A stretch of DNA of 64,000 bases from Amoebophrya sp. A120. Lineage: Eukaryota > Protista > Dinoflagellata. Under the pieces are notes generated by a model, which did no database searches, was not told the origin of the DNA, and saw only the letters and a program-made list of their open reading frames with translations. A program made the position numbers and the translations under genes. Location of the stretch: contig CAJINV010000007.1 in NCBI GenBank assembly GCA_905178155.1, positions 4,428,258 through 4,492,257 of the forward strand. The letters are read 5' to 3'. This document shows positions 10,452-63,852 of the stretch, one piece after another (position 1 is the stretch's first letter; each line of letters opens with the position of its first letter).

Positions 10452-13400
10452 TCAAAAAAACCGCGGTTGGTGGTGCTGCTGCGGCTGAGAGAAAAACATC
10501 TGCTGTTGCGGCTGCTGCTGGAATTGGTTTTGATGCTGCACAATTGGCACCTGCTGTTGCGGGTGCTGGAATAGCTGCTGTTGCTGCTGTTGTGGCGCTC
10601 CTCCACTTCCCGGCTGTCCTCCGAATAATCCGTTCGGAAAAAGAGATTGCGGTGGCTGCTGCTGCTGCTGCGGCGGAGGCATACCTCCACCGTAAGAAAT
10701 AGAAACCCCGGGGGCTACCTGGTAAGTCGTTTGGCCCGCCGCGCCCTGCGCTGGAAATTGATGTTGCTGGAACACTGGTGGTTGCTGCTGTTGTTGCTGC
10801 ATCACGCTGCTGTTCTGTGGCATGATCGTATTCGCCAGACCAGACAGTGCGGCAGACGCCGACGCAAACCCCTGCTGGGCCAACGTCTGTGGATGGAACC
10901 CTGGGGAGGGCGGGACAGAACCTGAAAACGAATTTCATGTGCTACGTACCAGGGTGATAAAACAAAAAAAAAGGGTCAACAAACACTACTTCACAACAAA
11001 ACATGTTCATGTGTACGATGCATATAGTTATACTACTTCCCTCACCTGCTTGCTGCTGCTCCATCGGGCTGGCCGCAGAAACGTTGCCTCCACCACCACC
11101 GCCCCCACTTCTCACAGACGCCAACAACTGCGATTTTTCCTCGCTTCTCGCGAAACAGTAGTCCGAGATCTGCTGTTTGCACTGCCGGAGGAAGTCCCCT
11201 AGTCTGGTGTAGAAGTTGATCCCATCTGCTAAATCCTTCAACACCGTCAACAGCATATTCGCGCACGCAGTCAAAGCAGTGATGATCTTCGCCCGCTCGG
11301 AGTTTTGAAAGGCGGACTTCCGCGCGTTCACCGTCGTGTTGTACAGATTCAGTAGGTTTTCCGCCTGTTTCCTGTACTCCAGCTTCAGATCCGGTATGGA
11401 AATCGCAGGGAGGTTTTGCATCGAAGTGCCATCCTCGTTGATCATTGTCGTACTATTTGACGCGGACCTCAACTGCGTCAAGTGCTGCTCGATCTTCCCC
11501 TCCACAATCTGCCGGCAGGTTTGGTTCAGCTGCTGATTGGCAGACAGGCCGGAACAATTTGCGGACACAGCAGCAGCATTTCCATTTCCCCCTGTCGTCG
11601 TTGTATTCACTGCGTCTAGTAATTCGCCCTCCACCGTTTTGTCGTTCTTAATCAAGTTCTTCGCTTCGTCAATTTTCTGCCTCAACTGCTGCTCCAACTG
11701 CTCCAGCTTCTGCAAGGCTTGCCGCACCGCGTTGGTGTGCGACTCCAGGACCGACAAATCTCCGTTCCCTCCCTGCGACTCGGCCAATTGCGCCGCAGAC
11801 GGGGTGGTGGAAGCCGGCAAGCCCTGCTCGATTTCCGCACGCGTTTTGCCGATCCACTTCACATTCGCGTTCTTCATCAACGCCTCGCCCCGGGCCTTCA
11901 GCACTTCGTTGGCCTTCCTGGCCTCGGACAGTTTTTTCTCGTACGACATCAAATTCTGCCGGAACTGCTCTTGCAGAACCTCGGATTTTTCTCTTTTCAA
12001 AATCGAGTCCTGTCCCGCCTGCGCGATGCGTTGGCTGAACAGGTTGTCATCCTTCATCTCCTCCTCCAACTTCACGACGCATTCGTTCAAAAGCGATCCG
12101 CAGATCCGATCGTACTCGGTCAACGCTTCCAAGCTAGCCGTCAAACCGCTGACGCCGCCCTTGCTGGCCGCATCCTGGATCTTCGCCCAGGTCTCTTCGG
12201 GCAGAGGTTCGATAGAAGCTTGTGGGTTGTTCGCGGAAGTTCCTTTCGTCGTCACGCCGAGAGTCGACGCGATCAAATCTCTGACGTCTATCGTGTTCTG
12301 ACCGGCAAGAGGACCACCTCCCATTGCCCCTGCACAAGCGCCCGCGGCTTGTTCATCCGAAGGACCACCGGCTGCAGTGCTGGAAGACAGTATCATGTCG
12401 ACCTCCTGCTTCGAATTTTTCCACTCGTCGTCCAACGCAAACAAAACCGACTCCTGCCGCATCTGGTAGTCTTGCAAGGCGGATTGGACAAATTTTGGGA
12501 GCAGCGTTGCCAGCACCGGTTTGTACTTCAACCCATACGCCTCGTCGAAGAACGCGGGGTCGGTAAACCCCGATTTGGAGAAGGAAATAGGCTTGGAAAC
12601 CTCAATTGTCGTGATAATCGGCAACTTCGCAAAATCCGTCACTTCCGGCGGGAAGTAAATGGTCTCGCAGTCGTGCTTCACCTTGTTCAATTCAATCTGG
12701 ATGGCGCTTTTCAAGCTGCCAACGTCGCTGTATTCCGATTTTCCCGCGGTGAACACCGTTTGCTCCGCGTGTTTGAACCGCGCGAGACACTCGCCCCAGC
12801 CGCGCATCGTTTTCTCGCAATTTTCCTTCTCGAACATCGCCTGCTGAAAGACCGCCGCGGCGAGAAAAGTTTTTTCCTGCGCGTCGAAGATCTCCGCGAA
12901 TTGCGGCCCAATCGACCCTATCAAATGCAAATATGTCTGGGTCTGGAAAGTTGGAACTTGTAGTGCTAGCTTTACACTCCTGGGATTGGGAAATTTGTAC
13001 TGCATAACCGACAAAAGCCGCAGCCATTTTTGTCATGCAAGAGCGCAGTTTCTCAGTCTCATGCAGACTACCTATGAGAAACAACTCCGGGAAGTTGTCA
13101 TGCTGGGCTGCATATGGAAGCCTTTTCATCATGCGCATTTTAGCATCACAAGTTTCCAGACCCAGACATATTTGCATTTGATAGACCCGGTGAGCTTCCT
13201 CGCGGCGGTCAGGCACTGGCTGTAGTCATTGGAGACACGCATGGCCAGCTTCGCCAACAGCGACCGGAGTTTCTTCTCCTTGACCGCCTTTTCGTAAACA
13301 CACGTGTTCGCTTGCGCGATCATGACGCAAGACCACATGTGGAGTGCCGATTGCGACAAGTCGTGCGTGGCGATCCCCTGCAAATCGGTCGCGACGAAAT

Positions 13401-13959
13401 CTCGGAGAAACGCGAAAATCCCCGCGGACCGGCAAAAGAGCTGGATCGCGTGTCTGGAGCCCTCCTCCGTCGCGGTGCGGTTTTGGTTCACGGCGGACGA
13501 CCCCTCGAGCGCCGCTAAATTGTAGACGCAACTCGCTTTCTCGAGGAGAAAAGAGGACTGCTGCGTCTTAACCTTCGGGCGGAAGGTGTCGTACCAAACG
13601 AGATCCACTTTGTAGCTGCTGGTGGAGGTCTTCTTCGTGTTGGTGTTCACCAAGTTCGCGAATCTCCCCTCCAAGAGTTGCAGCAACGCGACGTACTCCG
13701 TGATCAGCTGTCGGGAGGTGTCTAAACTCGCGTCCGAGCTCCGGACGTCCCGGCTGATCCGGTCGCGGTGCTTCTGCACGTCTGTGGCGAACTCGAGGAG
13801 GAGGGGGCTGGGGGGCGGGTTCGGGTTGAATCCCGGCCCGGCGTTGTTGAAAGTGGAAACATTGTTCACGATATCCACACCAAAGGCTCTCTGGCAGTAA
13901 GTCGTGATGGCGTCGCGAAGGTTCGCCGGGTCGGTGGGTTTCACGTCGGGTTTTAGCAT
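10452..13959 (-). CDS. ALIX/Bro1-family ESCRT adaptor (Bro1 domain, coiled V-like region, Gln/Pro-rich tail), ~1037 aa; exons 13959-13188, 12917-11046, 10921-10452
   Basis: Bro1 motifs LVWYDTF, FLLEKASCVYNLAAL, AIQLFCRSAGIF, HDLSQ..L.MW...MIAQA, DCETIYF; V-domain end GINFYTRL. Intron 1 is a non-canonical element; intron 2 (10922-11045) is GT-AG. Start codon uncertain. Confidence 0.88.
12919..13183. mobile_element. Introner-like TIR element, family A (TATCAAATGC...), intron in Bro1 gene
   Basis: Perfect 31-bp TIR TATCAAATGCAAATATGTCTGGGTCTGGAAA (12919-12949 / 13153-13183). Perfect TSD GACCC. Removing 270 nt gives KLTG-SIGPQF in frame. Confidence 0.95.
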
Positions 13960-14129
13960 TGTGCGCACTTTTGTTTTGACGTATACTTTCGTGGTGCAGA
14001 TGTCAGCGGTTGCCAGTTGTTGCCTATGCCCAAGACATCATTTTTATTGACGTAGATGGAAGAAAGTAAAGTTTTGACCAACTAGAAAAAGCACGGATCC
14101 GAGCACTTGATGCTGCACGACCTCCAAAT

Positions 14130-16365: not shown

Positions 16366-18758
16366 CTACCGTTGCACAAATGGCAACGCGTTTGGTAACT
16401 TCACACTCCGTACCAGGAACGGATGATTTTCCAACAGGTCCGTCGCCGCGATTCGCTTGTTCGGGTCCAGCGCCACGAGAGAATTCAAAAAAGACAGACA
16501 CCCGTTCTGCGTTTCCTTCTCCTGCCTCACTAACTCGTACAAAGCCACGCTCCAGGAGTTGTTTCGGTCGTATAGTTCTTGCCGACCAGAATTATCTGCC
16601 TCGTTGCTTGTTCTACCTTGTTCACCTTCGCGATAATGTTGCTCCAACACTGCCGCGTTATTTTTACCTCCATTTGGTGCGGTGCGTCCCACAACAGCCC
16701 CTCCTATAGTTGTAGCAAGCGCTGCTGCGCCGGTAACGGTTCGTCCAGTAGCGGAAGTTCCATCTGCTCCTGCTGGAGCCGGGTTGCCTTCTGCTATCTC
16801 CATCCGTCGCCAATACACAGAAACCGGGATCATGGTCTGGTCCTCCTGGTGGCCGTTGTCCGTGTCCGAATTCACTCCAGCCCCCGGGATTGCCTGCCCG
16901 ACTCGCTCGATTTCCGGCCAAACGGACAGAATCTCGCGCCGGAACTTCTGTGCAGAGGGGATGGGCTTTTGGGTCAATTGCAGCTCTACCCGGACTTCAG
17001 CTCCGGTAGTAGCGGTACTAGTTGCAGCAGCCGGAGGTGCTGCCTGCGCAGGTTTTTCTGTTGTCATTGTACTTTGTCGTCCGTTCCTTCCACCATCGCT
17101 CATCCCGGCGGTGGTCCCGTACGAAAGCATGGAATTCAGGATCAGCGGAAGCTGTTCAAATTCCGACGGCGATTGGAAGAGAATGCTGCCGACCACCAGC
17201 TCCGCGAAAATGCACCCGACCGACCAGAGATCGATCCCGAACCCGTAGAAGTAGCTCCGCAGCAAGACTTCGGGCGCGCGGTACCACAAAGACACGACGT
17301 TGGGCGACATCGACCAGACCGGCTCGACATAGTTTGCGTGAGGCTGCAGGTGCTCCACGTTCAGGCCTTCTTGTTCAAACTGCGTTGTAGCAGATGAATC
17401 TTGTGGTCCACCACCACCAAGTATTCTTGCGTCTGTGCTTGTCCTCTCCACCGTCTTGATTTGGTCGCCTCGCTTCTCCTCGTTCATTTTTCCCAGGCCC
17501 TGCTCCGTTCGTCGCTTCTTCGAGGAGGGAGAAGCGGTTGATTTGAGCAGCAACTTTTTGTTGCCGTTGACCTTCCGCAGGAGCTCCTGCTTCCTTGCAA
17601 ATTTCTTCGGCTCCACTACCACTCTTAGCACCGATTCCTCCTTCTCCTCGTCAAAATCTTCGTGCCAGATCGGGTCGCCAACCGTGGATCCGGTCGCAAG
17701 ACCAAAATCCGTGATCTTCAGAAGACCCGTATTCGCGTCGCACAGCACGTTATCCGGCTTCAAATCCCGGTGCACGAGGTTCAGCTCCTCGTGCAAATAC
17801 GCACAGGCGGTGAGAATCTGCTTCATCATGCAGGCAATGTCGGCGTTGGTGAGTCGGGTAAAAGTCGTGTGGTAGTTATTCTTGTTGTGCCACCTATGAT
17901 CATCCGCCCCGCCGATCCCAAACGCTTGCCGGCTTGATGATGTTCCACCTGGTGGCGGTGAACCGGCAACACCAGAAGCAGAAGCTCCTCCAGAAGACCT
18001 CTCCAGCAAATCTTCTTTTCTCTTTTTCTCCCGGTACCTCTCCATCAATTGCACCACTTCCTGCTTCTTCTCCGCGATCAAGGCCGCGTTTTGCCGCGTC
18101 TCCTGGTTCGTCAAGTGCTCGATTTGCTGTTCCAACTCCGCGATGAAAACTGGGTACTTCAACAAGAATACCAGGTCCCGCTGGTGTTGCTCGATGCACT
18201 TCCGCAAGTTCAGGTCCAAAAACGGCATCACCAGGATCAAGTCCTTCGACTTCGCGTCCACGAACGCTGTCACCATGGAGATCAAATTGTCGTGCCTGCA
18301 GATCGACATCGTCTTCAGTTCGCGGATCGACGAGATGTGCAGCCCGGAGATTTGGGAGGACTGGGCCTTGATCTTCTTCAGCGCTACGGTGCTGGAAGTC
18401 AAATTGTCCCGACATTTGATCTATCAAATGCAAAAGTGTCTGGGTCTGGAAACTTGTGACGCAAGGACGGGAATAGTGAGCTCACTGTAATGATGCGCTC
18501 CACAGCATGACAAGTTTTTTTTCATGGTTCTGAGTTGCGTACTCCGCATAAGAAACTGCGTTTTTGCATGACAGGCAGGAGGAGCTCTTTGCGACCACGC
18601 AATACAGAGTTCAGAGTCATGCCAGACTAGCATGAAAAATCTCGCAATCTCCCAGACCCAGACATATTTGCAATCGATATGATCACCTTACCGTAGGTTC
18701 CCTCGCCGACGTGGCGCTCCAGGACCTCGAAGCGGTCGTTCTCGCCGTATTTCAACAT
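16366..18758 (-). CDS. Cyclin-dependent kinase (CDK7/CDK10-like), ~709 aa with long insertions; exons 18758-18684, 18420-16366
   Basis: GEGTYGKV, VALKKIK, GLHISSIRELK (PSTAIRE-equivalent), HRDLKPDNVL, DFGLA, VVSLWYRAPEVLL, IDLWSVGCIFAEL, LDPNKRI. Exon 1 is missed by the ORF track. Confidence 0.92.
18422..18679. mobile_element. Introner-like TIR element, family A, intron in CDK gene
   Basis: TIRs TATCAAATGCAAAAGTGTCTGGGTCTGG / CCAGACCCAGACATATTTGCAATCGATA. Perfect TSD TGATC. Internal homology to the 12919-13183 copy in inverted orientation. Confidence 0.93.
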
Positions 18759-37480: not shown

Positions 37481-38076
37481 ACTGGCTGCTTGTACTGCAA
37501 GGGGGTCTTTCTACTTCCAAGAGTAGGCGCAAGTCAAATTTTTACAAACCGAAATAAGCAATAAATGTGAGCAGCAGGCCACCGGCAGTGCCTGTGCTGG
37601 TCATCGATCTACCTAGGTAAAAGTCGATGCCTTCTAAGTCTAACTTCAATTTTGAATTGGTGCTTTCTGTTCTAGATATTCTACAATTACAATGAGAAAC
37701 CGGTACCAGAGAGGATGACGACGAGATGTCCTAAATTATTGGAATTTAATGTCTGGAAGTGACTTCGTGTTCTAAAAAACTGAAATTCATCCGAGCTAAA
37801 TTAATACTTAACTGCAGACACGGCAAGGGTGGCTGTGGTCCAGAGCACAAGAAGTGCATGGATTAAATAACCGCATGCAAGAAAAAAGTTACGAGCAAAA
37901 GGAAGCATGATTAATCTTAATGATGAAATTGAAAGATTGATAGACTTCGACGACGAGGCCGGGTGGATAGCCGGACCTGAAAAAAAATGAAAGACGAAAC
38001 CCTTCGAACAAGTAGACAACGAAACTTCTACGGTGATTTCTAGCCGTCTTGACTCACTGCTGGTATATATACTTTG

Positions 38077-41719: not shown

Positions 41720-44166
41720 TTTGACAGTCTTCGTCTTACTTCTCTTGCTGTAGTGTCATCGAAGAAAATACATAGAATGCCATCGACGCCCTCTTCTAGC
41801 ACAAGCACGTTTACGCAACTACCAAATCACAAAGATCCACACGAACGGAAAACCAGAAGGGCTATTTTATCCGGTTTCAAGGTCAGGTGACTTTCCCATC
41901 TGAAATTAATGTCACTTCGGATCTACTTCTAGGTCTAGCAGTGCCACCACTCCTGCTCGTCCAACCTCAATAAACTCAGTGACATCACTCTATCTCCAAA
42001 ACAGGGACGACATAGAAAACACTTCCTCTCGGTTCAACAACCCTTTTCTTCTTCATCATTATCTTGATAAAGTTCTTTGACAGGTGTAGTAAATTGCAAT
42101 TGGTGTGAGCAGAGCTAGTAGATGCTGAACTAGCATACGCACCCGTTTTCCGAACCGACAACACCAGCTCCTGCGATGATGAATTTACGTAAACTTACAA
42201 CGTCTTCACGCAAAAACTCGCGAGACTGCAACTCAATTTCACAACAGAGGAGTGAGTGTTGTGAGAAGGAGATTCCATGGCGATTCCCGAAAGCATTGAC
42301 GACGATTCTCGAAAGCAATTGCAATATGAAGCACCCTGATTTAAGTAGTAATCGACTTAGATAACTGGGCACCATGGTGGGCAGGGAGCGCGCCCAATCG
42401 TTTGCCGCAAAATTTTCCTGAAAGAAACCCCATTCCTGATTATTCTGCTTTCCACCGAAGATCGAACTCTTAGAGGCGCAAACGCAAGCGCGATCCTGTC
42501 CTTAAAAACCACTTGACGCTCTTTCAATGCTCAAGATATCCCAAATCATGCAGAGGCGAAAGAAACAGATGTGATAGTGATAGATCCCGTGCGTAATAGC
42601 GATAGACGGTGTAAACTTTGGTATTCTTCGAATCGATACGGATCGTACTTTGCAACTTCTACGAAATCTGTACAGCAGCAGCCATTGAAAAAAAACCTGC
42701 TTCTGTCCCGCAATAGCATAACTCGAGTCATCTTTCATCTATCTATAGGCTTTATAATTTTGATTAATCTTTAAATTTGAGCAACTTAGGTCCTTGTCAC
42801 CGCCAACATGTTTTTGAATCCATAAAAAAAGCTTCTGCGAGACAATTGTTCTCAGCAATCGGTTAAGTAAGTAACAATGACATATTTATAGATATACCGT
42901 TTTGAAATACCGACGTTAAGAGCGAGGGAGACGAGAGGTTGTCGACAGCTTAAAAAAAAATCAGTACTCGTGCCTGTCTTAATTTCTTTGAAAAATTCGA
43001 ACTACAAATATGCATAAAAGTCCCTTCACTCGTTTTTTGATCTTTGCAGGAGGCAATGACATGCATCTATAAGTTTTTCCGCAGCGACAGCCCCCGGCTG
43101 CTTCTGCATACGCAAGCTTTCATAAGTGTTGTACCTTGTAATGCTATGTATACTATATCGAACGTGATTGCATTGCTTGCACCCTATGAATATGGGTGAA
43201 AAGCCTTCTTAGCGCTCATGGATAAAAGTAGTACCCTTTACATTTTATGAAAAAGATGAAAGTTCTGAGAAACTTACTACAGCGTGTGACACCGCAACTC
43301 AATTGTACGTACGGTTTGTACGTCGGCCGCTCAGATAGTAATCACTTCCTCTTGTTCGTGTTCGTGCAAGGCAAACTCGTGGCTATGCAAAAAACAAAAT
43401 TAAACAGCATGTACGCGTCCTCGCTTTTCATTTTCTCCATCGACATCGATGAGCCCATGCTTCAGCTCAACGAATCATGCGGTAGAAGAAAATACCATCC
43501 ACGTATCCACACCCAGAACCAGATCCAACTCACTCACATACTATAGTATGCATGCCCAAGCGCCGCCGAGGACGTATCAATAAATCGAGATCGACTTCAG
43601 CTAAAAAAAATTGTGGCTGCAAATGCTGTTTCACTCACTGCACACTGTTGAAAAGCCAAAATGTGAGTACGTGGGTCGATAATAATGACTTTGAAACACA
43701 ATGCAGACGAACATCTACCAATGCGCTTTGCTTTTTCATAACCATCGCCGAGAATTACCCGCCAGCGTCCCGGAAAATTCGAATAGAAATAGTGTCCGCT
43801 TGGCTGGTCGTCGTGGGGCACTTATCAAGCTAGACACGCTCCTCGCGAAGGATGGTAATACACAGCTGCATCACCTGTGGTCGGAATGTGAACAATTTTC
43901 AACATCAACATCAAAAACGCAAATTGACTGACCGCGTGTCTACCCGCACGGGTGCGGCTACTAACTTTAGACCGACGCAAGCGCACGCGGATAAAAATCG
44001 GTAAGAGAATGCGAGAGGCATTGCAGAGCACTTTTCGGCTTCCACCAAACGCACGCGCGCTGAGAAGTAGCACGTGCACCAGGTCGCATACTTATAATTT
44101 TCTCAGGTAGTGCCATCGATCAAAAATTTCCGTGTGCTGGATTCGGTGAGGTAAGGCGTGTCTTCT

Positions 44167-47100
44167 TCATGATAAAAACGTGATGACCGCCGTGCCGTCC
44201 GTGATGGCCAGAATTCAAATATCCCACGCGAAGTTACCGCCGCCATCATATTAAGGCTTTGATTTTATTTCGGAGAAGAGATGCTTTCACGTTCACATTT
44301 CAAGCTTATCATGCTTACTCTGTGTAGTTCTCATGCATGGGTGTGCGCGTACTCGTACATAGACATACCTATCACGAAACAATGCTGGTGATGCCGCCGG
44401 CTTACTTCGTTTCTTTTGTAGGATAGCCCAGTCGTGTGTTGTACAAAATGAACGCGTCGTACATTTCGGACAAGAAGATCGGCTTGACACCGGTTGCGCT
44501 ACAAACGTGCGGCCGGATGCTGAATGGCGCGATGCCTCTTAATCCTTGGTACATACCAAGATGCTTGGCAACAGTTTCGCCGTTTTGTCCTTCTCCTTGC
44601 TTGATGAGTGCTTCTTTGTTTTCGATGAGCCTCTCCAGGTTCGCATTTTCTTCACTTGGAGGTGGTGGTGCAACGACGCCGCCTAGTGGTGTAGGGAAAA
44701 CGAGAATCACAGTCAATAAACTGTCTCGCATGATAGATAGCATTAAGCGGCAGGCGGCCCCCGCCGCAGTGCTCAGTTAATATCAGAAATTTACATAGTC
44801 ATAGCCCAACACGGCCACATCTGTGACGTGGACGCGACGAACGATGCCGTCTCTCGGAGCTCTCCGATCTGCCAACTGCCTGTGCCTATATTTGATGATC
44901 AGACCAGAAATTGAAATTGAAAATACTTGCGCGTACCTTTGACCTGTATTGCGTATCCCAAATTTTGTGCGGCCAGGCTGTCCACAGCCTCTTTGATCGT
45001 CTGGCGCGAAAAAGGTACCAAATCCGGGCGCTTGTTGTCCTGGTAACCGGTATCATCATTTTCTGCTTTCGGGTCCCGCAGCAGCTTGGAGCCTCGGGGC
45101 CTGAGGTCTCCGTCTGCTCGGACAACACGCTTCGCCACTTTACACTCAGCGAACTCGTTGCTTTTGGGATCGTGTGGACAGAAGAACGCAACCAAGACGA
45201 GCGAACCCGAACCGCCCCCGCCCGGAGCGCCGCTACCTTCACCAGACGCCTTCTCCTTAAGTAATTTCGCCTCCTCGTCCGCGACAACGACCTCGGCAAT
45301 TTCTTTAGGGCCGGCAGTTTTTGGCCCTTCTGAAGCAGGATACACTCGCTGGAGCTTCAGGCGTGTGTGACGTTGAGTAACTGTTCCGGGTGGACTTGAA
45401 ATCGAGCCGGACCCCTTTCCTGTTGTCGCATCCTTACTCTCTCTGTCGACAGTGACTTGGTACACAGTTATCTCTTTGTCGACAATCTGCATCTTGTCAC
45501 GGATAGCATCTCCTAGGGCTTTGTGAAGTGTCTTTTGCGGCCCTTGGCCAAGGCCAGCCTTTGCCTCCTCTTCGTTCGCAACAATATACACCCAAGAGGC
45601 GGTTTTGGGCTGCCCTAAATATCCCTGTGCGCGCGGGTCGAGTAACCCTGTATCCAACGTACAGGCAGGGAAAAAACTATGGCTCACTCCGCCTACGCCG
45701 CGTGCCTGCAGATCTGGACAGGAGTACGAAAAGGAGGCACACGGGAGGGCAACTTTCGTCGACTTTGTCTTGCCCTCCTGGGCGAACCAACCGTCAGCAC
45801 CACATTTGTCGCCCGCTCCGCTTGGTAGTGCCGGTTTTTGGGCACCAGACGGCGACACGCTGCCAGCCCGTTTCTGCAGGTCCGAGACCTTGAAGTGTTC
45901 TATGCGGGCAGCGGTGGTTTGGCTAGGAAGCCACCAGGCTTCATAGTCTTGGCCATGACTGCGCGAAGGAACTAGTGGTCGGTCTTTGATCCACTCTGCT
46001 TTGTTGATGTCGGAGTCCCGTGATGGCCCACACTCCCCGTAATCTGTTGTCGTTATCAGCTGCGGGTATTCCACGTCAGACCCCTGGGAATCTGTGCTGC
46101 CTGGCACGAGGCAATCTCCTGCGAAATTTCCGTCCTTGGAGAAAGCGTACGTGGGGCCATAGATGTGATGTGGTGCTGGGTCGCCCGAAAGGCCGAAGAA
46201 GAGAAACGAGTTGTCCTGATTCTGCACCATGCTGCCAGCTGATTGCCCGGCAAGCAAGAGTTTCTTCTCCCGCCAAAGCCGTAGAATTTTGGAAAAATAC
46301 GAAGGAGCGTCTCGCACTTCGGCCATTACGTCAAAGACATTTCCGCCACCGATGTAATACATCGTCTTTGCGTCTCCTTCCTTGGGAAATAAGCGATTGA
46401 TGAGCTCGCCTTGAGGAACAGCATCTTCGTGATCGGTATCGTGTGGAATCTTTTGTACCATGTCCGGCTCGTCCGCGTCAATTTTCCAGCTCAGGTTGAT
46501 AAAATTTTCGCCGTCGCTGTGGGGGGAAGGCACCCTAACCCGTAGCTTGTGCCGGACCAAATCAACGTAGAACACTGAATCGTGCGCGATCTTTTTGTAT
46601 TCGGGTACCTGCCGCAGCGAGTCGGTAAATTGCCGCAACGAATTGGCGACGTGTGCTCGGAAGGACGGCGTCATCAGGCACTCGACAAATTCGTATGGTG
46701 GCTGGAACTTTTTCGCTTCTTGTTCTTGTTCTTTCTCTTCTTCTGCTGCTGCTTGCGTCTTTGTTTCCAGCTCCAGTGTGCTCTCTGTCGTGCCCATCTC
46801 ATCTTCATCTACTTCTCCGCGGCATGCTTCGGGATTCCGCAGCATGCTAAGCTTGGCGTCCGCGTTCATGATGAAAGTGAAAGGCGCTTTTCCGTTGGTG
46901 CCACCGCCCCCGCCTTTGCTAACAAACTCCCGGAACAGGTTCACGAATGCCAGCTGCAGGCCGCCATTGTCGATGAGGGTGGACAAGAAAAACCCGTATC
47001 CATAGGACGCAGATCCAGCTTGGGACTGCTGTTCCCGCGGTTGGCCGGCGCTGGACGACATCGAGGCCTCGAGAGCAAGAATGCAGGTCACATACGCGCG

Positions 47101-50100
47101 CTGCGCCACGTGACTGGAATCGGGATACGCGAGGGCAGCGCGTTTCCCGGCAGGTAGGCAACCTGCAACCAACGCCCCTTGTTTTTGTTCGGGTCCAGGT
47201 CCTTGGCCGTTGTTCGCTGTGCCTGCACTACCCTGGACGCCCCCATCTGGTGAAACTACATTCGCATCTTGGATGAGTCGCCACACCCGGTCCTCGACGT
47301 CTTGCTTTTTGCCGCCTGTCGGAATGCATACAACGGACAAAGCGAACAGGGAGGAAGAGCCCAGCGCCTCCGACGACGATTTGGGAGTCTGGGCGGGCTT
47401 CTCTGGGCACATGAACTCCATTGCCTCGAACACGCTGCCATCGCCGCCTAGATACGTGTACTCTCTTTCTTCTTGTGTCTTCGCAAAACCTTGCGCATAC
47501 ATCTTGCACGTCGCCTGGTGGGTGATTTCGGCTTGTTTTCCAGTCCCGCTATGGGGCTGCTGCGTGGCCGCCTCATTCGGGAACGCACCCTTTTGACTTG
47601 CTGTGAGCACCGGCGCGCAATAATCTTCAGGGCCTGGGCTTACGCATTGCCAGCTTTCCTTTTTCCCTTCGGTAGTGGTGCCGCAAACCTTGCACCCGGC
47701 GACCCGGCACGCTTTTTTCGCAATTTTCAGCACCATCTCGTTGTCGTCACTGCTGCCGCCCGGCTGCTGCGTGTACGCTTTGCGGAACCTATCGTAAGTC
47801 TGAGCGAACTTATCAGCGTCACAAGCGTCGTCGGGCCCCGTGACGGAGCGCGAGTGCGCTTTGAAGAGTTCAGCGCCTCCCTCTTCTTTTCCTTTGTTCG
47901 AGAAACCCCATGAAGTCGAGCTCATCAATTTCGTAGATTTTTCGGCCGGCCCTTCTCCTCGCACAAGGAGGAACTCGGCGTCCCCGAGGATTGCCCGAGA
48001 CAGACCATCAAACGGATCCCGGTCGGTCGTGCCACGGACTTCGCCCCCGGGCGTTGTGACGACAGCCATTCCATCGGTAATCGCAATCATTTCGGTTTCG
48101 GTATTTTGCACCAAAAACGTTCCGTACATTAGGGACTCGAAAACCGGCTTCGGTCCCGTGGCGCTGCAGACATGCGGGCGAATGCTGATACCTGGGCCGA
48201 GCCCCCGCAGGCCTTGATACATTCCAAGGGCGCCAGCTCCTACTGAAGCTCCGCTCAGAGCAACCGTGACGCCACCTGGATAGAGATGTTTGTCAGCGAG
48301 CTTTTTCTATTTTTCAGCGCATTTTTTTGCACTGATTCGGGCGCCCACCCTGATCTTTGGCTGCGATTCATGGGCGCCGCTGCACACTCGCATAGCGGGA
48401 CATGGCGTCCACAGCTCATTCCGTACCTCTGCGCAGACGGCGGGCAGGGCGGCGCCAGAGCTTTGCTGTGCTAGCGGGCCGGCCTGCTGTTCGGGCCGGC
48501 GCAAGCCAAAAACACGCCCCCGACCAATACTGAAGGCAACCGGGCACACGGTTAACAACCGCGGTCATGCTGCTGGCCGGCAGGCACGCACCCACGTGGA
48601 ACCCACAGGCGGCAGGGGTGGGCCGCCCCTTCTACTCCGCAAAGAAGGGTCCCGAAGCGAAAGGAGCCGGGTTGGATTCGCCGTCGCAAGGGCAGCGCGG
48701 ATACATGTACCGTGCGCGCGCCCGCTACACCGGGTCGCGGGCGGCTTGATGATCCCCGGTGGCCCGGGGGAGTGTTAGTTTGCCGACCGGGTGTGTGAGC
48801 CGGCAACCGGGCACATGCGCACGGTACGCGGCGCGTTTCATCGGGGCGGCCAAGGCAAGCAAAGAAACACGAGGCGGAAGGCCAACGCAGTGCCTCCCTG
48901 GGGCTTCTATGCTGGCTTTTCGCCGGGCACCTAGGCCGGGCGGGCCCTTCTTGGGTGGCCGGCTGGGCACCTCTCCGAGCCGGCTAGCTAGCTTCGGGGC
49001 CTTTTGGTCGCGCCCCCGACGCGAGTAGGAGATTCGCCCCCCGGCCTTTTTCAATGGCCCCGCCCGAGGACAGGAAAAATCGCAAAGCGCCTCACTGACA
49101 TTCGTTCGTATCTGCCGCGTGCATGAGACGAGGCGATCTGCGCCCATCCGACGCGGCCGGGCGACCGAGCGACCCATCCCCCGAAGGCGTCACTCGGGCC
49201 TTGCGAAACGTCCGCTCGGGGTAACAAAGAAAAAGAACCGCACCGCCCTTCGGCCAACCCATCCGAAGGACGACCGGGCGCCCAGATAGAGCACATGGCC
49301 AAGGCCGCTCGGACCCCTGCCTCTCCACCCCACCATAATTAAATTGGGAGGGCAGCGGCAAAACCAACGGAAACCAAGGCCCGCCAAGGCATATTTTGCG
49401 CAGCTGCCTAACCACCAAGCAAGACACCCGCCGCGGAGCACTGCAAAACACGCAGGGCACGAGAAAACCGCGAACCCGGCGAAGGGGCTGGCGACAAGAC
49501 CCAAGGGCCCGCCCGAAGCCGGCCCGCGCCTTTTTTCCAATTTTGCTGGGTTTTCTGAGTGACACACAAAGAAAAGCCAACGAGGGAGGCTACTTCCACT
49601 CGACAGAGGGGTTCTCGCGCAAGATTCTCGGGCGCTTCACTTCGAATCGTTGGCGCACATCCATGCTTGGATGGCTGGGCCAGGCGCCACTCGGCTTCGT
49701 CCGTTGGGTTCCTTGCCGTCTCCCCGGGGGCGCGGCAAAAATAAAAAATGCACTCACGGTGGCTTGGCTGTCTGCCTGAAACTACCTAGTAAAAAACGAG
49801 CGCGAGCGGCCGCTAGATCTTCATCGTTTTTGCCAAAAAAGCGAATGCCACTCCCTCCCCTTGACCTGATCCCCAAATTAAATGAAAGCGACCAGCCGGC
49901 CCTGGCGGTGGTGGCAGCTGTTTGTTATTTAAGCCCAGGGACATGCGCAAAAGTGCCAGCCACACCCTGTGTGGCCGGACTGTTTTTTCCCGCGCCGCCG
50001 CCTTTCTCCCGGCGCCAACCGCCTTTGGGCGCCCACAGACACCAGATACATTAGACCCCAGCGTGCTGGCTGGGCACCTCAACCAATAGTAGCCGCCCCA

Positions 50101-53100
50101 GCGGGGGTAGTGAGGTCATGGCGGTTTTTTTGTCTTCACGCCAGAAAAAGACGCGAACTCTCTGCCCACCATGCCATCGCGAGTAATGTTATGCAGGACG
50201 GCACGGCGGTCGTTAAAAATCTCGATCCAGAACTGGCCCTCGTTTGGTTTCGAATCGAAAAACCTTCCCCGCATGCTATTGACCCGCCAGGGCCCCCGCC
50301 AGGATCGGCCCCTTGGGAGCCCCAAATCGGGCCCATAGCATGCGGGTTGGTTTTCTGCTTTTGGCGGACTTTGGTTTTTATTGTTTTTCTTTGTGAAAAT
50401 GCCGCATCTTCTGGCCTCAAGTCCGCCTCTGAGATGGCGGATTTTGGTGGCGTCTTTTGCGGGGCCCGAATGTGGGTCAAAATGAAGCCCATACCATGCG
50501 GATTCGCTGTTTTTTCGGAGTGCTACTTTTTGGGCGTCCGTTTTTGGGCGCCCCAAACCGCCAGAAATCAAGGCGGTGGGCGCCTCAGAAGGGCGCCCCT
50601 TTTGCCGGCTCCCCTGCGTCGTTTTATCAAGCGGGAATCGATAGTTTTCGACCGGGCTTGTTTCACGGCAAAGCCCCGGCCGCTTAATAATTGAAAATCT
50701 TTCTTGTCGAAAAACACTTCCGGCCGCTTGAAAACTGCCGGCCGTTTTGCAGGTGAGGTGCCAAAAAAACCGCTAGGATAGAACGTTCGTGACCTCACTA
50801 CATATAAGGCGGCGATGGGACCACGAACAGACCGACCGGGCGCACCCACGGTCGCGCGTGCCAAATACCACAGGGCGGTGCGCTCACTGGATGCCAACAC
50901 GGCAAACTCGCGTCGGGTTGGTAAAATATTGGCTGTGAAGGCGGAGGAGCCTGCACCTGCTTCCGGCCGACCCGAGCAGAAGTCGACGGCCATTTTTTTT
51001 TTTTTGCGGCAGCTGGCAGAGAGGACGCCCAGATAGAACTTGATGAACGCCTGACGGGGGCGTGGCCTCGCCACTTCAACATACATATTTATACAACTCA
51101 CAACAAAGAAAGGCCAAAGGGCTGGAACATTTATTTTCAGTATAAATACCCGCGACTTCCACCTTAATTTTCGTTTCCTCCTGCTGGTCTACACGATTCG
51201 CAGCCGCCTCAATGATGTTTCGCGAAAACGGAACCAGATCAGGGTGCGCGTCTTCATCTCCATTGCGTGCATCCGGGTCCCGCAGGAGCTTTGATCCCCG
51301 TACGCGCAGCTCCCCTGGCCGGTCGCCTCTTCGAGATCGCTTCGCCTTTGCGCACTCGTTATACTTCGGAGACGCCGAATCATGCGCGCAGAAGAATGCA
51401 ACATACACGGTGCTCGGCCGCTCCTGCCCCGACAGTTTCGTCTTCAACCACTGCGCCTCGTCGCCTTCGACTCTTATATGCTTAACCGGCTCGGGTTTGG
51501 GAGAGTCAGAGGGCACCTCCGTCAAGAATGCGCGTGGTACCAACTCGATGCCAACCCCCATCGGCTGCACTGAAGTTGGTGATCCATTCTCCACGTGGCC
51601 AGCTGCCTCAGCGAGAATCACCCTGTACACAAATACAGCTCGATCTACCATGGGCATGAGTGCCGCGATATTTTTTTTGATTGTTAGAGCCACGGCCTCT
51701 TCTTGCGAGTCCTCGCTGCCCGTGTCCCCATCAACGTGCATGTACACCCAGGACGAAGTTTTGGGTTGGCCCAAGTAGCCCTTCGCTTCCGGATCGAGCA
51801 ACCCCGTGTCCTGCTCACAAGCCCGATAGAACTTATCCGAAACACCGCCGACCCCTTTCTCGCGCAGGTCGTGGCACGAATAGGAATACGATGCACAGCC
51901 CTTGAGAGCCCATTCGGAGTTAAAACTTGTGCCGCGGGTACCACATTTCGGCAAATCCACGCCACCCTGCTCGCCGAGCCTGATGAGGCCAGCAGGCTCG
52001 GGACCAGCATCTCCTGCCGCCGGCGCCTTCGCACCTAGTGACTCGCGCTGTAATTCCGACACCTTAAAGAAGTCGATGTTTGCGGCGGTGTTGCGGCTCG
52101 GGTTCCACCAGGACTCGAAATGCTGCCCTTCACTTCGCGGAGGGACAAGAGGGCGATCTTTTACCCACTCACCCTTCTTCTCGTCTGCGTCCCGGACAGG
52201 ATCGCACTCGCCTGTGCTTGTTGGCGTTATCAGCTGCGGCCAATCCAAATCCGATTTTTTGTCCTCTTTCTCCTCCTCGGGGTCGCCGATACAGTTCCCC
52301 GCGAAATTTCCGTCCTTTGAAAACGCGTAGGGCGACTCTTTGTAGATGTGATGCGGAGCAGGGTCGCCCGATAGACCGAACATCAAAAATGAGTTGTCTT
52401 GGTTCTGAACCATACTGCCAGCGGATTGTCCCGCGAGTAATATGTTCTTCGCCCGCCATTGTTCGAGAATATCTGCAAAGTACTTCTGCAGCGCTTCTTC
52501 ACGCACCTCCGCCATAAGGTCGAAGACATTCCCCCCACCGATGTAGTACAAGGATAAGGATTTAGAAATCCCAGTGCTGGCCGCTGATTCGCTTGATGTT
52601 GCCAATTTCGATAATTTCTCGGCCGTCTCTGCTTTCCAATAAGGACTGATAAAGCTCTCGGCTTCCGCAAACGGAATCTTGACGCGAATGCCGTGGCGAG
52701 CAAGATCGACATAGTACGTGGTGCCCCGTGATGTAACCAAGTCAGATAGGTCGGCATTAACGGGTGTCGCCCCTTTCGTGAGCAGAAGCGCGTCGGTGAA
52801 TTGACGAAGGGAATTCGCGACGTGAGTCTTGAACGCCGGCGTCATTACACATTCTGCAAGTGCAAGCAACTCCGTACTAGTTGACCCCGTTTTTCCACGG
52901 CAGTCGGGTGTCTTTGGGTGACGCAACATACTCAGTTTCGCGTCTGCATTCATGATGAAGTCAAACTTCGCGTCATTCGCGCGCCAGTTGTATCCATCCT
53001 TCTGGGCAATGAACTCGCGAAACAGGTTCACAAAAGCGAGTTGCAACCCGCCGTTGTCGATAAGAGTGGATAGGAAAAAACCGTAGCCGTACCGCTCGTG

Positions 53101-56100
53101 CTTTTGTTCACCAAGAGAAGGCACGGCAGCACTGCTCGGGTAATTCGCCGTGGAACCATCAAGCGCAAGCATGCACGTCGCATACAACCGCTCGGTCTTC
53201 TGCTTCTCGTTTGGATAGGCGAGCTCAGCTCGGTGGCGCGCAGTTTGACAGCCCGGGTCAAGAAAATGTTCCTGTTTATAAGGATCTGGTTGGACAGCGT
53301 CTGTGGCCTCCCCTGCATTTCCAGCACCAGTCGACCGCTCGAATGTCGGCATCTCAATCGCAGCCCGGATCCTCCGTATGTAAGGTTCAGCCTCACTCTG
53401 CAGTTTCGGAATGCAGATCATAGATAACGCAAAGAGCGATGAAGTGACGCTATCGCGGCGGCAACCACTTTTGCGAAAAGCCCTTTTTTCCGGTTTTTGC
53501 AGACCTGCTGATCTGCATGCGTCACGCAGGCACGAGCCTGCCTGTCTGATGTAGAGGCCCGCTCGCTGTGGCTCACCATTGTGCTGGCTAGTCGGAAGGT
53601 CTAGCTTTCGCCACCGTGGAGGAGCCTGCCGGCAGTGCCTCTCGGCGCGATGAGCAAAAGCAGCTCTCTTCGGGTCGTGGTTTGTGTTCCTGCAGATTTT
53701 TGCGAACTGCCGCTGCCCGAAGTGGGGTCTTATGCTTAAACTACCGCGGCCATGCATGGCACCGCCCCCCAGAATGCCGTGTCTACAGTGTGAGCAGGTC
53801 GAAAGCTCGCAACCCGAGGAGCCCGAAGGAGGGATCGCATAGGCATACTCCCCCGAGGAAGGGTTTGGGGGACGCCCCTTCGTATAGGTCTTATATATAA
53901 TGAAGGGTAGCTTGCGGAGGCGAGATCGTGATCGCCCCAGAAGGGAAGGTGTTGGGAACGAGAACGGCCCTGCCGGGGCAAAAGAAAAGCTCCTTTCGGC
54001 TTGCAGCCAGAGCGAACAAGAATTCGCCCCACTGGCGAAGCAGCTGAAGACGCAACGCGATCACCCGAGCAGCGCCGCTACGTAGCAGAGGCCGCCGGGT
54101 TCCCCTAGCTTTTGGCGACAACGCCCCACACCGAGGCCGCAACCGCTGGCGCGCATCATGCAACAAGAAGGCGGCCAAGCCGCGCTTTTCTCTTCGTTGC
54201 GGAGGTGCGCGCGTATCTTGTGCAAGTTCGGCTTCGGCATCACTGAAAACGATGAACGACAACACAACCAGCGCTCTGGACCTAAGTAAACTGCCTGACT
54301 TTTACTCCGGCCGCCGCGGGCCAGCCTCGTGGCCCCTGGGCCGTCTTTCTTCTGCGTGTTTCGCCCTAAGCGGTTACTTAAGTGACAAAGAAGCCGCGCC
54401 CATACTATCTAAATACAGGGCACTCTGACAAGATTAAAGTTTCCGGGGTAGCGGACGGGCACACCCGTGTCTGTGCCCGTCGCCGTCCGCGACCGGCGAA
54501 GCAGAATCGCGCTGCTCTCACAGTCACATGTGTCATGCGGAGCAAAAAAATCCTTTTCTTTGTTTTTCGGAAAAAGTGTTTTCCGTTGCCATAGACAACA
54601 TTTTTTTTGCTTCCCTCGGTTTCCTTGTCCTCCGGTATGTTTTCCCAGGGCGGCCGCGGAATCTCCTGGTCGGGACACATAAACTGCACATGCTCGAAGA
54701 CCGTACCGCGCCCCCCTGAGTATGTTGTTTCCTCTTCGCCTCTTCCACTTTCACGAGCAAAATTTAAGCAAGTCCTTCTAGTGCTCAGCTCCTCATTGGA
54801 AATTCCGCCGTTGTGCTTCGATTTCGAACTGGGTGGGGCTATCAACGGCTGCATCAGTTTTTGTTTGAACAGCTGCTGATGTTTCTTGGGTAGGACCGGC
54901 GCGCAATAATCCTCCGGGCCAGGGCTAATACACTCCCACTGCACCTTCGCATTCGCCGAGCCACATACTTTGCAGCCTGCTACCCTACATGCCTTTTTTG
55001 CGATTAGAAGCTGCATTTCATCGAAGTTGTCCGCTAGTGCCGATTTTGTCCCCGCGTCCTCAGGGTTTAGGGTGCCAGGCTTTTTCTTCCATTTTCCCAT
55101 GAGATCGTCGTATTTTTGAGCAAACTTGTCAGCATCACAAGCGTCATCGGGGTGCGTCACCTCTTTGAAGTGTTTCTTAACGACATCTGCTCCGTTTGTC
55201 TCATCGTTCCGGTAGGCAGCTTGAAGCTCTGTGACACTACCTCTACCGGTAGACGAGGCAGTAGCCTTATCCACATCTGGGAATTCATCTTTCTGGTTCT
55301 GCGAACCCTGCGTCTGCCCCTGCTCCTTCTCCTGTCCCTTGTTCCGCTTCCGCTCTCGTTCGTGCCAGTCAGATGTAGTTCCACCTGCTCGAAGCGTGTT
55401 TGCGCCATACTCTTGTCCCGCCGCACTAGATGTCGTAGAGGAACCTTCAGGCGCCGTGCTGCCCATCAACAAAGCGTCTTCGCTCAAGGAGCCATCTGCC
55501 AGATAGTACGTTGGTTTCACATTATTCCTGGTTGCAGGGGACCCCACAGTCGTCTCCTGGTCCTTCATTTTATTACCGTCAGTAGCCGTCCACGTCCTCG
55601 TACCGCCACCGGTCGTCATGATCTTGTCGTCTTTTCCAGCCGACGAGGTCGCACTACCAGATGAAACGAGGCGCGATTGCGAAACCTGCGCCACAGAGGA
55701 GGTGGAGGACGACGTCGCCACAGATGAGCTGGTCTCTGAAGTGGTGGTCGACCTGCTCGCGCCACCAGCAGCTCCACTTCTTTCCACCGCTCCTGGTGGC
55801 GCCGGCGTGGCGGACCCTCCAGCACCAGTGTTGATACGCACGGGTCCGCGGTGGAACTGGTACTTTTGCGGGTTTTGATTTTCCAAAAACGCAAAGGATT
55901 CCTCCCATTCCTGGTCCGCGTTGACGATGCCGTCCGCGTCCATCTCTGCTCGCTTGTTTCCCGTCCGGTCCCCGCTACGCCCGCGGACGAGCTGGTTCGA
56001 ATACAAACATGTCTGGGTCTTCTGTGGTGGAAAGAAAAAAATTGATTGTTGAATTTCTTGGTCTTTATCGACGATCGATATTTGTTCTCGACACTGACTC

Positions 56101-56656
56101 TCTTCTGGTGAGTGGACAGGAAGAGGAGAGACACCACAAAAGACACATCGCAAAAAACAACCTTTTCGTCACTCCATTTGTCAGTTGTCAATGCCAGCAG
56201 CCCCAGCAAACTGCAATGAGATGTCGCACTCAGAGTCAGAGGGTGCAAGAGAAGATCAGCATATTACACGTTTGCAGTAGCGGTACTGCAGCCACTACTT
56301 CACATGCGTCGGACATGTAGAGAATTTAAGCACGTGTTTGCCACGTCCAGCCAAAAATTTCTCTTGAAAGACATCGACATCGTCGGTCTATTCGACGTAA
56401 ATTGCATGACAAAACAAAGAAGAAGAACCGCTCCGACGGAGACACTCCTATTTGCATCTGATCCAAACCCAGACGTTATGTTTGTATTCGATAGGCTCGC
56501 TCACGGAGCGGTAGCCGGTCGCGAGATCCGCAACCAGTAGCAAGGAGAGCAATGGTGCTATGATTGATAAGAAGGGCTTCAAAAACCGACTCCGGAACGT
56601 CGACAACCTGCTATGGAAGTCTCCTCAACAGATAATTACAGATTGAGCTGTTACAT
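44167..56656 (-). CDS. Probably secreted ~2,480-aa protein with two tandem, heavily inserted peptidase S51 (PepE/cyanophycinase-like) domains; exons ~56656-56655, 56607-56496, 55991-54596, 53447-51150, 48275-44937, 44682-44427, 44215-44167
   Basis: Each unit carries YYIGGGNVF, LLAGQSAGSM (nucleophile Ser), GLRG...SIRPH (His) and AITDG(M/T)AV, preceded by a Cys-rich module. Exons sum to 7452 nt with consistent phases. Hydrophobic N-terminus FLSIIAPLLSLLLVA. The start (AT|G split by a 47-nt intron) is tentative. Confidence 0.8.
44220..44425. mobile_element. Degenerate TAT...ATA element, last intron of S51 gene
   Basis: IR TATCCCAC-GCGAAGTTACCGCCGCCATCA vs TATCCTAC...CGAAGTAAGCCGGCGGCATCA. Removing 211 nt gives NTRLG-ILAITDGTAVI, homologous to EMIAITDGMAVV in unit 1. 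TSD largely decayed. Confidence 0.7.
48276..51149 (-). other. 2,874-nt GT-AG intron of the S51 gene, filled with a GC-rich degenerate insert
   Basis: G|GTATTT donor and TCCAG|GT acceptor join VEVAG-GVTV in phase 1. Same position and phase as the 254-nt intron 44683-44936 in unit 2. Confidence 0.75.
53451..54593. mobile_element. 1,143-bp TAT...ATA element with GC-rich interior, intron in S51 gene
   Basis: Imperfect TIR TATCGCGGCGGCAACCACTTTTGCGAAAA vs TATGGCAACGGAAAACACTTTTTCCGAAAA. 5-mers GACGC/GACAA. Removing 1148 nt restores KKNVV-TSSLFALS, collinear with unit 2, which has no intron here. Confidence 0.82.
55995..56493. mobile_element. Family A TAT...ATA element (older, 499 bp), intron near the 5' end of S51 gene
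   Basis: IR TCGAATACAAACATGTCTGGGT vs ACCCAGACGTTATGTTTGTATTCGATA, matching the family A TIR (left terminal TA decayed to GT). 5-mers AGCTG/GGCTC. Removing 504 nt gives YRSVSE-LVRGRS in frame. Confidence 0.82.
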
Positions 56657-60048: not shown

Positions 60049-60074
60049 ATGATGATGATGATGATGATGATGAT
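60049..60074. repeat. (ATG)n microsatellite
   Basis: About 8 tandem ATG units. Confidence 0.85.
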
Positions 60075-61950: not shown

Positions 61951-63852
61951 CTAGATGAGCGGGTCATTTCCGTCCGTCGAGGTAGCGAAGAACTGGTCGA
62001 TGTCGTCGCCCCAGGGCGGTGCGCCCCCACCTCCCAACTGCCAATCGTCGTTGAGCGAAGTAGTCATCATACTGCCAGGATTTATTTCTCCCCCACCCGC
62101 AACGGCTACCCCTGCCGCGTGCGTCCTCGCTCGTGTGCCCTCCGTCATACTCGTGGGCGTCAGGTTCAAGTTTAGCGAGCTCGTTGTCCCGCTGGGCGGG
62201 GGTGGGAGCGGCGGAACGAAGCTACTCGTCAGATCTTCCACGACAAGTGGGGGTGTGCTGTCGTGCTCTTCGAGTACCGCATCTCCCTGCTGCAACATCG
62301 ACCGGGACCTAGAGGTTGGAGTTAAGGACGCCGCGTTTCCTCGTAGTGTTTCGACTGACGGCGGCTGTACTCCACTAGCCGACGATGGTGCCAGTGAATC
62401 GTTTACCGACGAAGTACCACCGCCCGGCTGTATCCCAGCATTTCTTGCGGCGGACAGAACCGGTGGGCCACCGGAGCTGGAAGTTCCATACGTGACCCTT
62501 GACGGCGACCTGGGCCGCAAGCTCCGCGTGGCGCCCCCGTAGCCTTCCGTGGACGTGGCTGTTGCAAAAAGGCCGCCGTCGTCGAGCGGTAAGTCGCCCC
62601 CACCAAAGTCGTCCTCGTCGTCGGCGAACTTGAACATTTCGCGTCTGGTGCCCGACGATGAAGATGTTCCGACCATCATGCCACTCTTGCTGCCACCACC
62701 CATGCCCATCGCGGACGTGGACGCAAGCTCGACGACCCTCTCCGCAAACGAGTTACTCCCGGAATAACCGCTCTTGGCGGCCTGCTGGCTGGAGTGGTAC
62801 AGGCGGGCCGCGACGTAGATCACCAGGAGTAGCACGATAAACACGGCGATCTGCCGGGTCCTGCTGGCAACCTGTTGCGCCTGTAGGTCTCCGTCCGGTG
62901 GCGATCCGTCTTGGTTTCGTAACAATACGTCGTCTCCGCCGGTCGTTTGTGTTCCACCCCGCCCATAGTTTTCGGCTGCGTTCGGGCCTCCGACTCCGAA
63001 CTTGCCCAGACCGCCGCGAAGCGAGGTTTGCGGCTGGTTGTTGTTCTGGTTCCCCGTGGCGCTGGCCGTCACAATGCTCGTGCTGGTGGTCGCACCGTCT
63101 CCTGTTCCGAAGTTGCTCAGCTTCTGCTGCCAGTAGACCTCCTGGTCGTCCAACCACACATGGAAGTCCTGCGTGCGCTCGCTCGGGACCCGCCGCCACG
63201 TGACGAAGTGGAACTGCCCAAACGGGTTTTCGATCAGGTGCGGTTTATGGAACTGTCAGGATCGAAATCAAGAACAAAATCGAAATACTTTGTGATGCAT
63301 ATAATCGATACCAGTTGGGGCCGCAGTTTCCAAGTGGCGCATGACAAATTTGGGGAGCGCCAAAATCCAGTCTGTCATGCTGTTTGGGCAAAGAAGACGG
63401 CTCCTCTCATGCTACTCTGGCAGCACATTCCATACCCCTAAACAGGCTAGCAATCGGCCTCATTTGCCTGCTCCCCAACACAGGCCTTACGTGCGCGTGC
63501 CCTACATTTTATGCATTACAAATTTTTTGAATTTGATTTTGTCGATTTCGATCCTGACACTCTCATACGGCTTCGGGTGCGCGTACTTCGGCTTCCCGAC
63601 CGAGACGACGGTGTACTCCGTCTGCACGGCGTTCGTGCGAACAACTTTCGACAGCGGAAACGCGATAGAGGTGGACGTCGCCGTTCCGCCCGCGGTTGCG
63701 GGGAGCAGGGAAGAGGTCGCGGGCGTCGCGGTGAGGAGCTTCAGTTGAAAGGCGAACAGGCCGCACTCGTCCGGAAAGTTGGGCTCTTTATCCTGTTCAA
63801 AAGTTGCATCGCGCTCTTCGTAATAGTTGTAATTGCAGCCACTCATTTCCAT
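61951..63852 (-). CDS. Hypothetical single-pass membrane protein, ~524 aa; exons 63852-63568, 63240-61951
   Basis: Two ORFs join in frame (YAHPKP-HLIENPF) on removal of a family B element. TM segment IAVFIVLLLVIYVAARLY. May have further upstream exons. Confidence 0.7.
63246..63567. mobile_element. TAT...ATA element, family B (TATGAGAGTG), intron
   Basis: ~55-bp imperfect TIR TATG(GAAC/AGAG)TGTCAGGATCGAAATC...ACAAAATC...TTTGT(G/A)ATGCATA. TSD CGGTT/CGGCT. Confidence 0.88.

Follow-up and report, generated by a model that had tools for sequence, protein, structure and literature searches.

What interrupts so many genes in this part of the Amoebophrya sp. A120 genome, and how do the interruptions leave the message? 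The stretch analysed here, hereafter the window, comprises 64,000 nucleotides of contig CAJINV010000007.1 (assembly GCA_905178155.1, positions 4,428,258 to 4,492,257 of the forward strand). It carries a set of elements that begin with TAT, end with ATA, possess terminal inverted repeats (TIRs) and lie between 5-bp target-site duplications (TSDs), some of them decayed. Wherever spliced contigs cross such elements, the element and exactly 5 nt are missing, and a single cut position relative to the element ends is common to all junctions. The observation itself is real and mostly published, the elements being already described for the A120 genome: Farhat 2021 (PMC7789003) reports A120 inverted repeats that start with TAT, followed by seven variable bases and then by As. 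The direct repeats in that paper measure 3-5 nt, with 5 bp given in the legend of Fig. S19; the borders are non-canonical and an internal transposase is missing. Because the elements have been published for this genome, the finding is not new, and the initial annotation of the window overstated its novelty: the TAT ends and the 5-bp direct repeat are in that paper, and a Ginger label has been given to one family. What we add is a sharp, checkable rule, namely a fixed splice register combined with a uniform 5-bp duplication.

The rule is read from contigs of one sample (X3 and X5, with X3 = X5), which retain majority forms only and whose RNA status is a guess. Over positions 36600-56500 these contigs contain 14 joints, ten at elements and four at canonical GT-AG introns, all four of which have GTA donors and are skipped. 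The ten joints and one loose end define the following element introns (the letters are the first and last two bases of each intron):

36926..37464, minus strand, GT..TC: element 36930-37463 plus 5, TSD CGAAT; joint skips 539; in the 3' untranslated region (UTR) of the M28 peptidase gene
38359..38709, minus strand, GT..AG: element 38363-38708 plus 5; joint skips 351; orthologues collinear
39256..39587, minus strand, GT..CA: element 39260-39586 plus 5; joint skips 332
39934..40237, minus strand, GT..CC: element 39938-40236 plus 5, TSD CGGAG; joint skips 304
40287..40498, minus strand, GT..CC: element 40291-40497 plus 5; joint skips 212
41129..41378, minus strand, TT..GC: element 41133-41377 plus 5; joint skips 250
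43380..43741, minus strand, TT..CA: element 43384-43740 plus 5; joint skips 362, its short side having 30 letters; single possible cut
43819..44175, minus strand, TT..TG: element 43823-44174 plus 5; joint skips 357; single possible cut
44216..44426, minus strand, CT..TG: element 44220-44425 plus 5; joint skips 211; not in the paralogous repeat
53447..54594, minus strand, CT..GT: element 53451-54593 plus 5, the longest; joint skips 1148 (X5)
55991..56494, minus strand, CT..GC: element 55995-56493 plus 5; an X5 contig has a loose end at 55993 and resumes at 56498

As anticipated in the initial annotation, element plus exactly 5 nt is skipped at all 11 junctions of these contigs, which are likely RNA, and the joints inside long contigs have zero inserted letters by their record coordinates. 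Ten of the 11 borders are other than GT-AG. A low-depth unspliced contig (6.5 vs 119) spans the 36930 element, and the raw RNA runs X9 and X10 match only at 50688-50804, within a multi-copy repeat (about 50690-50805), and do not cover these genes.

All 12 elements initially listed are present at the starts given, with lengths of 206-1143 and the ends shown in the two lists; the four identical flanking 5-mers (GACCC, TGATC, CGAAT, CGGAG) and the decayed left end of 55995, which reads GTT, are also as described. To these we add three (43384-43740, 43823-44174 and 60729-61213). The elements for which no joint is listed above are:

12914..13188: element 12919-13183 of the TATCAAATGC family, TSD GACCC/GACCC, in a minus-strand BRO1/ALIX gene; predicted intron 12915-13184
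18417..18684: element 18422-18679 of the TATCAAATGC family, TSD TGATC/TGATC, in a minus-strand protein kinase gene; predicted intron 18418-18680
60729-61213: a TAT..ATA TIR pair whose TIRs resemble those of 63246; flanks matching at 1/5; no frame restored
63241..63572: element 63246-63567, TSD CGGTT/CGGCT; predicted intron 63242-63568, minus strand

The removal of element plus 5 nt, originally claimed from restored frames, is thus borne out by contigs for nine of the 12 elements (eight joints and one loose end), and for 12919, 18422 and 63246 it is judged by frame alone, which fixes the length modulo 3 only (2, 5 or 8). In 18422 the spacing of the kinase glycine loop favours 5 over the other frame-compatible lengths.

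At which nucleotide is the cut made? For each junction all cut positions that yield an identical joined sequence were listed, and the lists were then intersected. The sole cut common to the 11 junctions defines an intron from 1 nt before TAT to 4 nt after ATA in transcript sense (hereafter -1/+4), and the intersection does not change when the 43384 and 43823 elements are left out. The mirror register is excluded by 8 of the 11 junctions, two of which are unambiguous, and the chance of a single shared register is 1.5e-4 if registers are uniform, rising to 9e-4 when each of six registers would count. The resulting donors are GT in five cases, TT in three and CT in three, with an AG acceptor in 1/11; the N-TAT donor has +2 T and +3 A in common with the canonical GTA donors of the window. 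The terminal pairs of the repeats (positions 2-3) are predicted at P>0.9 in 11/14 introns, and an Rfam search gave 0 matches. The cut is likely placed at a fixed distance from the element ends, with an RNA hairpin acting as a ruler, and not by normal splice signals.

The length of the duplication is equally sharp. Among the 15 window elements, flank identity is 60% at a repeat length k of 5 (p=6e-10) and 13-33%, i.e. the chance level, at k=1-4 and 6-10. Ten TAT..ATA pairs in the window have a TIR score of at least 11, compared to a mean of 0.9 (maximum 4) in 30 block shuffles, and four of these ten possess a perfect flanking 5-mer, vs 0 in the same shuffles. TAT stands at the start of 29 of the 30 element ends, and 22 of the 30 have at least two As at positions 11-13; TIR identity against TSD identity gives rho 0.39 (p=0.15).

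Other copies were collected with a degenerate 25-base terminal motif. Of the stretches in metagenome_contigs, estimated at 380, it yielded 152 (hereafter loci). The TCP-1 exon of one of them (L080) is 100% identical to an A120 protein; therefore the loci represent the same species or strain and not an independent lineage, while the protein search with the SNF2 locus (L011) returned no A120 protein among its matches. Elements 12919, 18422 and 63246 have copies in the loci at about 70-85% identity; the remaining window elements gave 0 blastn matches there. From 181 ends, 31 were dropped (partner below threshold or at an edge) and 133 distinct pairs were kept, some long mis-pairings among them. 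A perfect 5-mer flanks 96 of these 133 pairs (115 with at most one mismatch), compared to 12, 3, 2, 0, 1 and 0 perfect duplications at k=2, 3, 4, 6, 7 and 8, with 12 the maximum at any k of 2-10 besides 5. The partner end is ATA in 127/133 and ACA in 1/133. A seed-based scan returned 353 other inverted pairs, of which 42 (2 from the window) have TAT..ATA ends; 31 of the 42, from several subterminal families, have a perfect 5-mer, with 0 at k=3, 4 and 6-9. The printed non-TAT pairs (score of at least 16) are mostly inner segments of the same elements. These other families have an A-run at positions 11-15 in common, and the target sites are flat in base composition, with no preference (126 sites). 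Hence the TSD length is centred on 5, as the initial annotation expected, in loci of the same species and across several subterminal families. At L008:985-1952 one right end is common to three tandem left ends, which suggests tandem or nested copies.

Eleven element introns have been assigned to two host transcripts:

38077..41755, minus strand: host gene 1, M28 peptidase-like; open reading frame (ORF) with five element and two canonical introns, ending at 38077
43331..56624, minus strand: host gene 2, internally duplicated, with S51 peptidase-like matches; 2527-codon open frame with five element and two canonical introns

The spliced frame of gene 1 is open for 643 codons, and its translation holds all 631 residues of a protein named Amoebophrya sp. 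A120 (P0001); together with the elements described by Farhat 2021, this match upholds the proposed tie to Amoebophrya introners. The comparison with empty sites gave none at the DNA level, where no locus flank matched the window, and agreement at the protein level. Upon removal of element plus 5 nt, the conserved junctions of gene 1 (40291, 39260 and 38363) align with M28 orthologues without gaps, while junctions 39938 and 41133 adjoin gappy stretches of the M28 alignment. In both the SNF2 and the TCP-1 locus, removal with +5 aligns gap-free with orthologues, and removal with +2 or +8 does not. The 36930 element is removed with +5 in the 3' UTR, where no frame selection acts; on account of this case and of the missing 2-bp and 8-bp repeats, frame selection is rejected as the sole source of the "+5".

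In gene 2, one canonical intron position is common to both repeats and four elements are repeat-specific; elements confined to one repeat were therefore inserted after the duplication. One transcript contig spans both paralogous halves, which are identical at 491/1159 columns, and each half has a weak peptidase S51 match. The canonical GT-AG intron at 48276-51149 (minus strand, 2874 nt) is GC-rich and contains an inverted pair at 50116-50778 as well as the multi-copy repeat matched by X9 and X10; its six ORFs have no Pfam match. Base +1 is G in 5/6 element introns of the deeper-covered gene 1, compared to 0/5 in gene 2 (post hoc Fisher test, p=0.015); GT donors may be under selection in genes that are well expressed.

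Elsewhere in the window, a 4233-codon open frame at 21709-34410 (minus strand) has no Pfam match, and its 12.7 kb are free of strong TAT..ATA pairs, whereas the adjoining genes have one element per 0.5-2 kb. Sugar transporter genes stand in tandem at 1-597 and 2971-5284 (minus strand); over 300 nt they are 77% identical.

We consider it quite probable that the window elements are the published A120 introners, built as TAT...ATA with a 5-bp duplication, inserted in trans by an integrase-type DDE enzyme and excised at -1/+4. In the proposed scenario, a DDE transposase of the integrase type, likely acting in trans, would make a 5-nt staggered cut in an essentially random target, and the end motif that it reads is probably TAT together with the A-run at about positions 11-15. 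The terminal repeats would then pair within the precursor messenger RNA, and a relaxed spliceosome would use N-T-A-T as the donor, with +2 T and +3 A kept and +1 free, while the acceptor would be set 4 nt beyond the stem, AG being unnecessary. The intron would take along a single base of one duplicate and four bases of its partner, so that exactly one target copy would stay in the message and the protein would be unchanged. Since the ends are symmetric, either orientation would work. It is tempting to go further and to consider a ruler-type splicing matched to one unnamed integrase-class lineage, whereby any TAT..ATA insertion with a 5-bp duplication, at any target sequence and in either orientation, would be cut at -1/+4 and the message exactly restored; this generalization we hold to be somewhat short of an even chance. 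Comparably tentative is the corollary that neither G+1 nor AG would be needed, the reader being either a U1-less spliceosome or a new nuclease.

Several observations weigh against the proposed scenario. The register is known from two minus-strand genes and one sample, from contigs that drop rare forms and were called RNA by guess, without a DNA-run control. Farhat 2021 describes splice sites that vary relative to the hairpin, argues against general mobilisation by a transposase and reports no transposase in A120. The annotation of one A120 family (fam2, 9716 introns; Dataset S2, PMC12130899) has N-T donors in 69% and A-N acceptors in 68%; the latter, taken literally, would make the mirror register common, and the fixed -1/+4 model alone fits the fam2 spectrum poorly (r=0.65). 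The spectrum is fitted well by a model in which the aligner chooses the most GT-AG-like register within the duplication. Its r lies between 0.93 and 0.99 over k=3-8, the best values in its two modes being 0.988 (k=5) and 0.977 (k=4), but it can neither name the true register nor fix k. This fits the anatomy of the elements genome-wide, and neither proves nor refutes the register. Element 55995 lacks ATA at its acceptor-side end, and the terminal stem is unpredicted for 40291 and 53451, both of which are spliced, so that at these two sequence motifs may suffice. At 45 codons, open frames at +5/+3/+4 number 43/38/35 of 78 locus elements, which does not separate the three lengths; the 18 oriented cases of this frame test, 9 in each orientation, are too few to draw on. 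The transposase search gave 0 matches in 22 window ORFs and none in the 82 scanned of 141 locus ORFs of at least 170 aa.

With respect to the mobiliser, the long TAT..ATA copies with a transposase ORF foreseen in the initial annotation were thus not found among these ORFs, nor was a long autonomous copy among the 31 unpaired ends of the loci, and three ORFs inside element 53451-54593 have no transposase domain (Pfam). What stands of the original interpretation is a TIR-bearing, intron-making system with a constant 5-bp duplication across subterminal families and removal of element plus 5; because no transposase was found, one enzyme for all families is something we infer. The elements could alternatively be the work of several unrelated mobilisers or of an RNA route, TAT and the 5-nt repeats being merely what splicing allows to survive in genes. 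Subterminal sequences do vary among families, selection for clean removal would favour a single geometry, and Dataset S2 of Gozashti 2025 (PMC12130899) counts 44 of the 58 A120 families as TIR DNA and 4 as non-LTR (long terminal repeat), the other 10 being unknown. Its TSD calls range over 2-11, the value 5 being given in 6 A120 rows, and it includes families such as fam65, a Mutator with an 8-9-bp TSD and GG/CC ends. However, every sampled family has the TAT ends, the A-run and a duplication of exactly 5 bp, and repeats of 2 and 8 bp, which would likewise keep the frame, amount to at most 12 and 0 of 133; we regard this explanation as unlikely.

About equally improbable, in our view, is a non-spliceosomal excision by a structure-guided endonuclease and a ligase at fixed hairpin offsets, as proposed for the nonconventional introns of euglenids. 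G+1 is missing in 6/11 introns and AG in 10/11, a stem would draw the intron ends together, U1 is undetected in A120 (PMC7789003), and the TIRs of euglenid introns also sit inside the border (PMC11282704). On the other hand, the +2 and +3 bases of N-TAT agree with those of the canonical GTA donors, two introns are without a predicted terminal stem, A120 has nearly all spliceosomal proteins together with U2, U4, U5 and U6 (PMC7789003), and the transposon-derived non-canonical introns of Fritillaria are reported to be spliceosomal (PMC11282704). As a side observation, a +2 T recurs in A120 families that are possibly not of the TAT type (fam26, fam71 and fam99 of Dataset S2, PMC12130899), nearly all of whose donors are GT or AT, with zero canonical acceptors.

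Less likely still is a splice position that floats inside the duplication with a net loss of element plus 5, the single register being peculiar to these two genes. The variable positions stated by Farhat 2021 (PMC7789003) and the presence of both N-T donors and A-N acceptors in the annotated spectra would suit it, but -1/+4 is allowed by 11/11 junctions and the mirror register is excluded by most of them, while the ambiguity of the aligner alone reproduces the published spectrum. The bulge-helix-bulge geometry of tRNA endonuclease is rejected, since random targets cannot form the central helix.

The mechanism of non-canonical splicing in A120 has been left open in print, with borders called variable. 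If both the fixed register and the constant 5-bp duplication hold, some 30,000 repeated introns could have their annotation corrected, the hunt for the splicing factor would narrow to a reader of N-U-A-U plus a stem, and the mobiliser could be sought among integrase-type enzymes that combine TA ends with a 5-nt stagger; under the ruler reading, a single geometric rule would cover the "variable" non-canonical introns, which number in the tens of thousands.

How do these elements compare to known systems? With the introners of PMC7789003 they have in common the organism, the repeats starting with TAT, direct repeats of 3-5 nt, repetition in the genome and non-canonical removal; repeat lengths and splice positions are variable there, whereas the elements studied here always have a 5-bp duplication and are cut at -1/+4. 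Neither a fixed -1/+4 register nor a uniform 5-bp TSD for A120 was found in the literature covered, from which subscription papers were outside the scope, although Figures 3, 4 and S19-S25 of PMC7789003 may show the register; the passages of PMC12130899 available to us contain no fixed register. Of the A120 families in that paper, fam38 is annotated as "5-bp TSD, TA/TA Termini", classed as Ginger and has Copia/Gypsy-like ORFs, while the main text describes it as without Ginger termini and TSDs; it is alike in its TIRs, TSD and ends, but is a single 5-copy family from which the description was not extended to others. The GT-AG border of U2-type spliceosomal introns is found in only 1/11 element introns. 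Introns of euglenids and Fritillaria bear TIRs and TSDs and have non-GT-AG borders, as here, but their motifs and offsets are others: euglenid introns have CAG/CTG at +4 to +6, and those of Fritillaria have AG-AC/AT (PMC11282704).

Among DNA transposons, the initial annotation could assign the elements to no superfamily, and this holds in part: Ginger has been proposed for one family with TA/TA ends and a 5-bp TSD, and the combination of TA ends with a 5-nt stagger is unlike every superfamily compared. TDD-4 and TDD-5 of Ginger2/TDD (PMC2836005) make 5-bp TSDs by an integrase-like enzyme, within the 4-5 bp of their group and in agreement with our elements, but have TGTNR termini and an RTATAY target preference, neither of which is found here. 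Closest is IS3EU/GingerRoot (PMC6839031, PMC10045372), which combines TA..TA termini, as seen here, with no target preference and an integrase-related DDE enzyme; its TSD is usually 6 bp, in contrast to 0/133 at k=6 here, its TIRs measure 100-150 bp and its elements 4-13 kb, and the passages available do not describe them as introns. Since IS3EU/GingerRoot and TDD-4/5 each fail one defining test, the A120 elements would act like both and are to be filed under neither.

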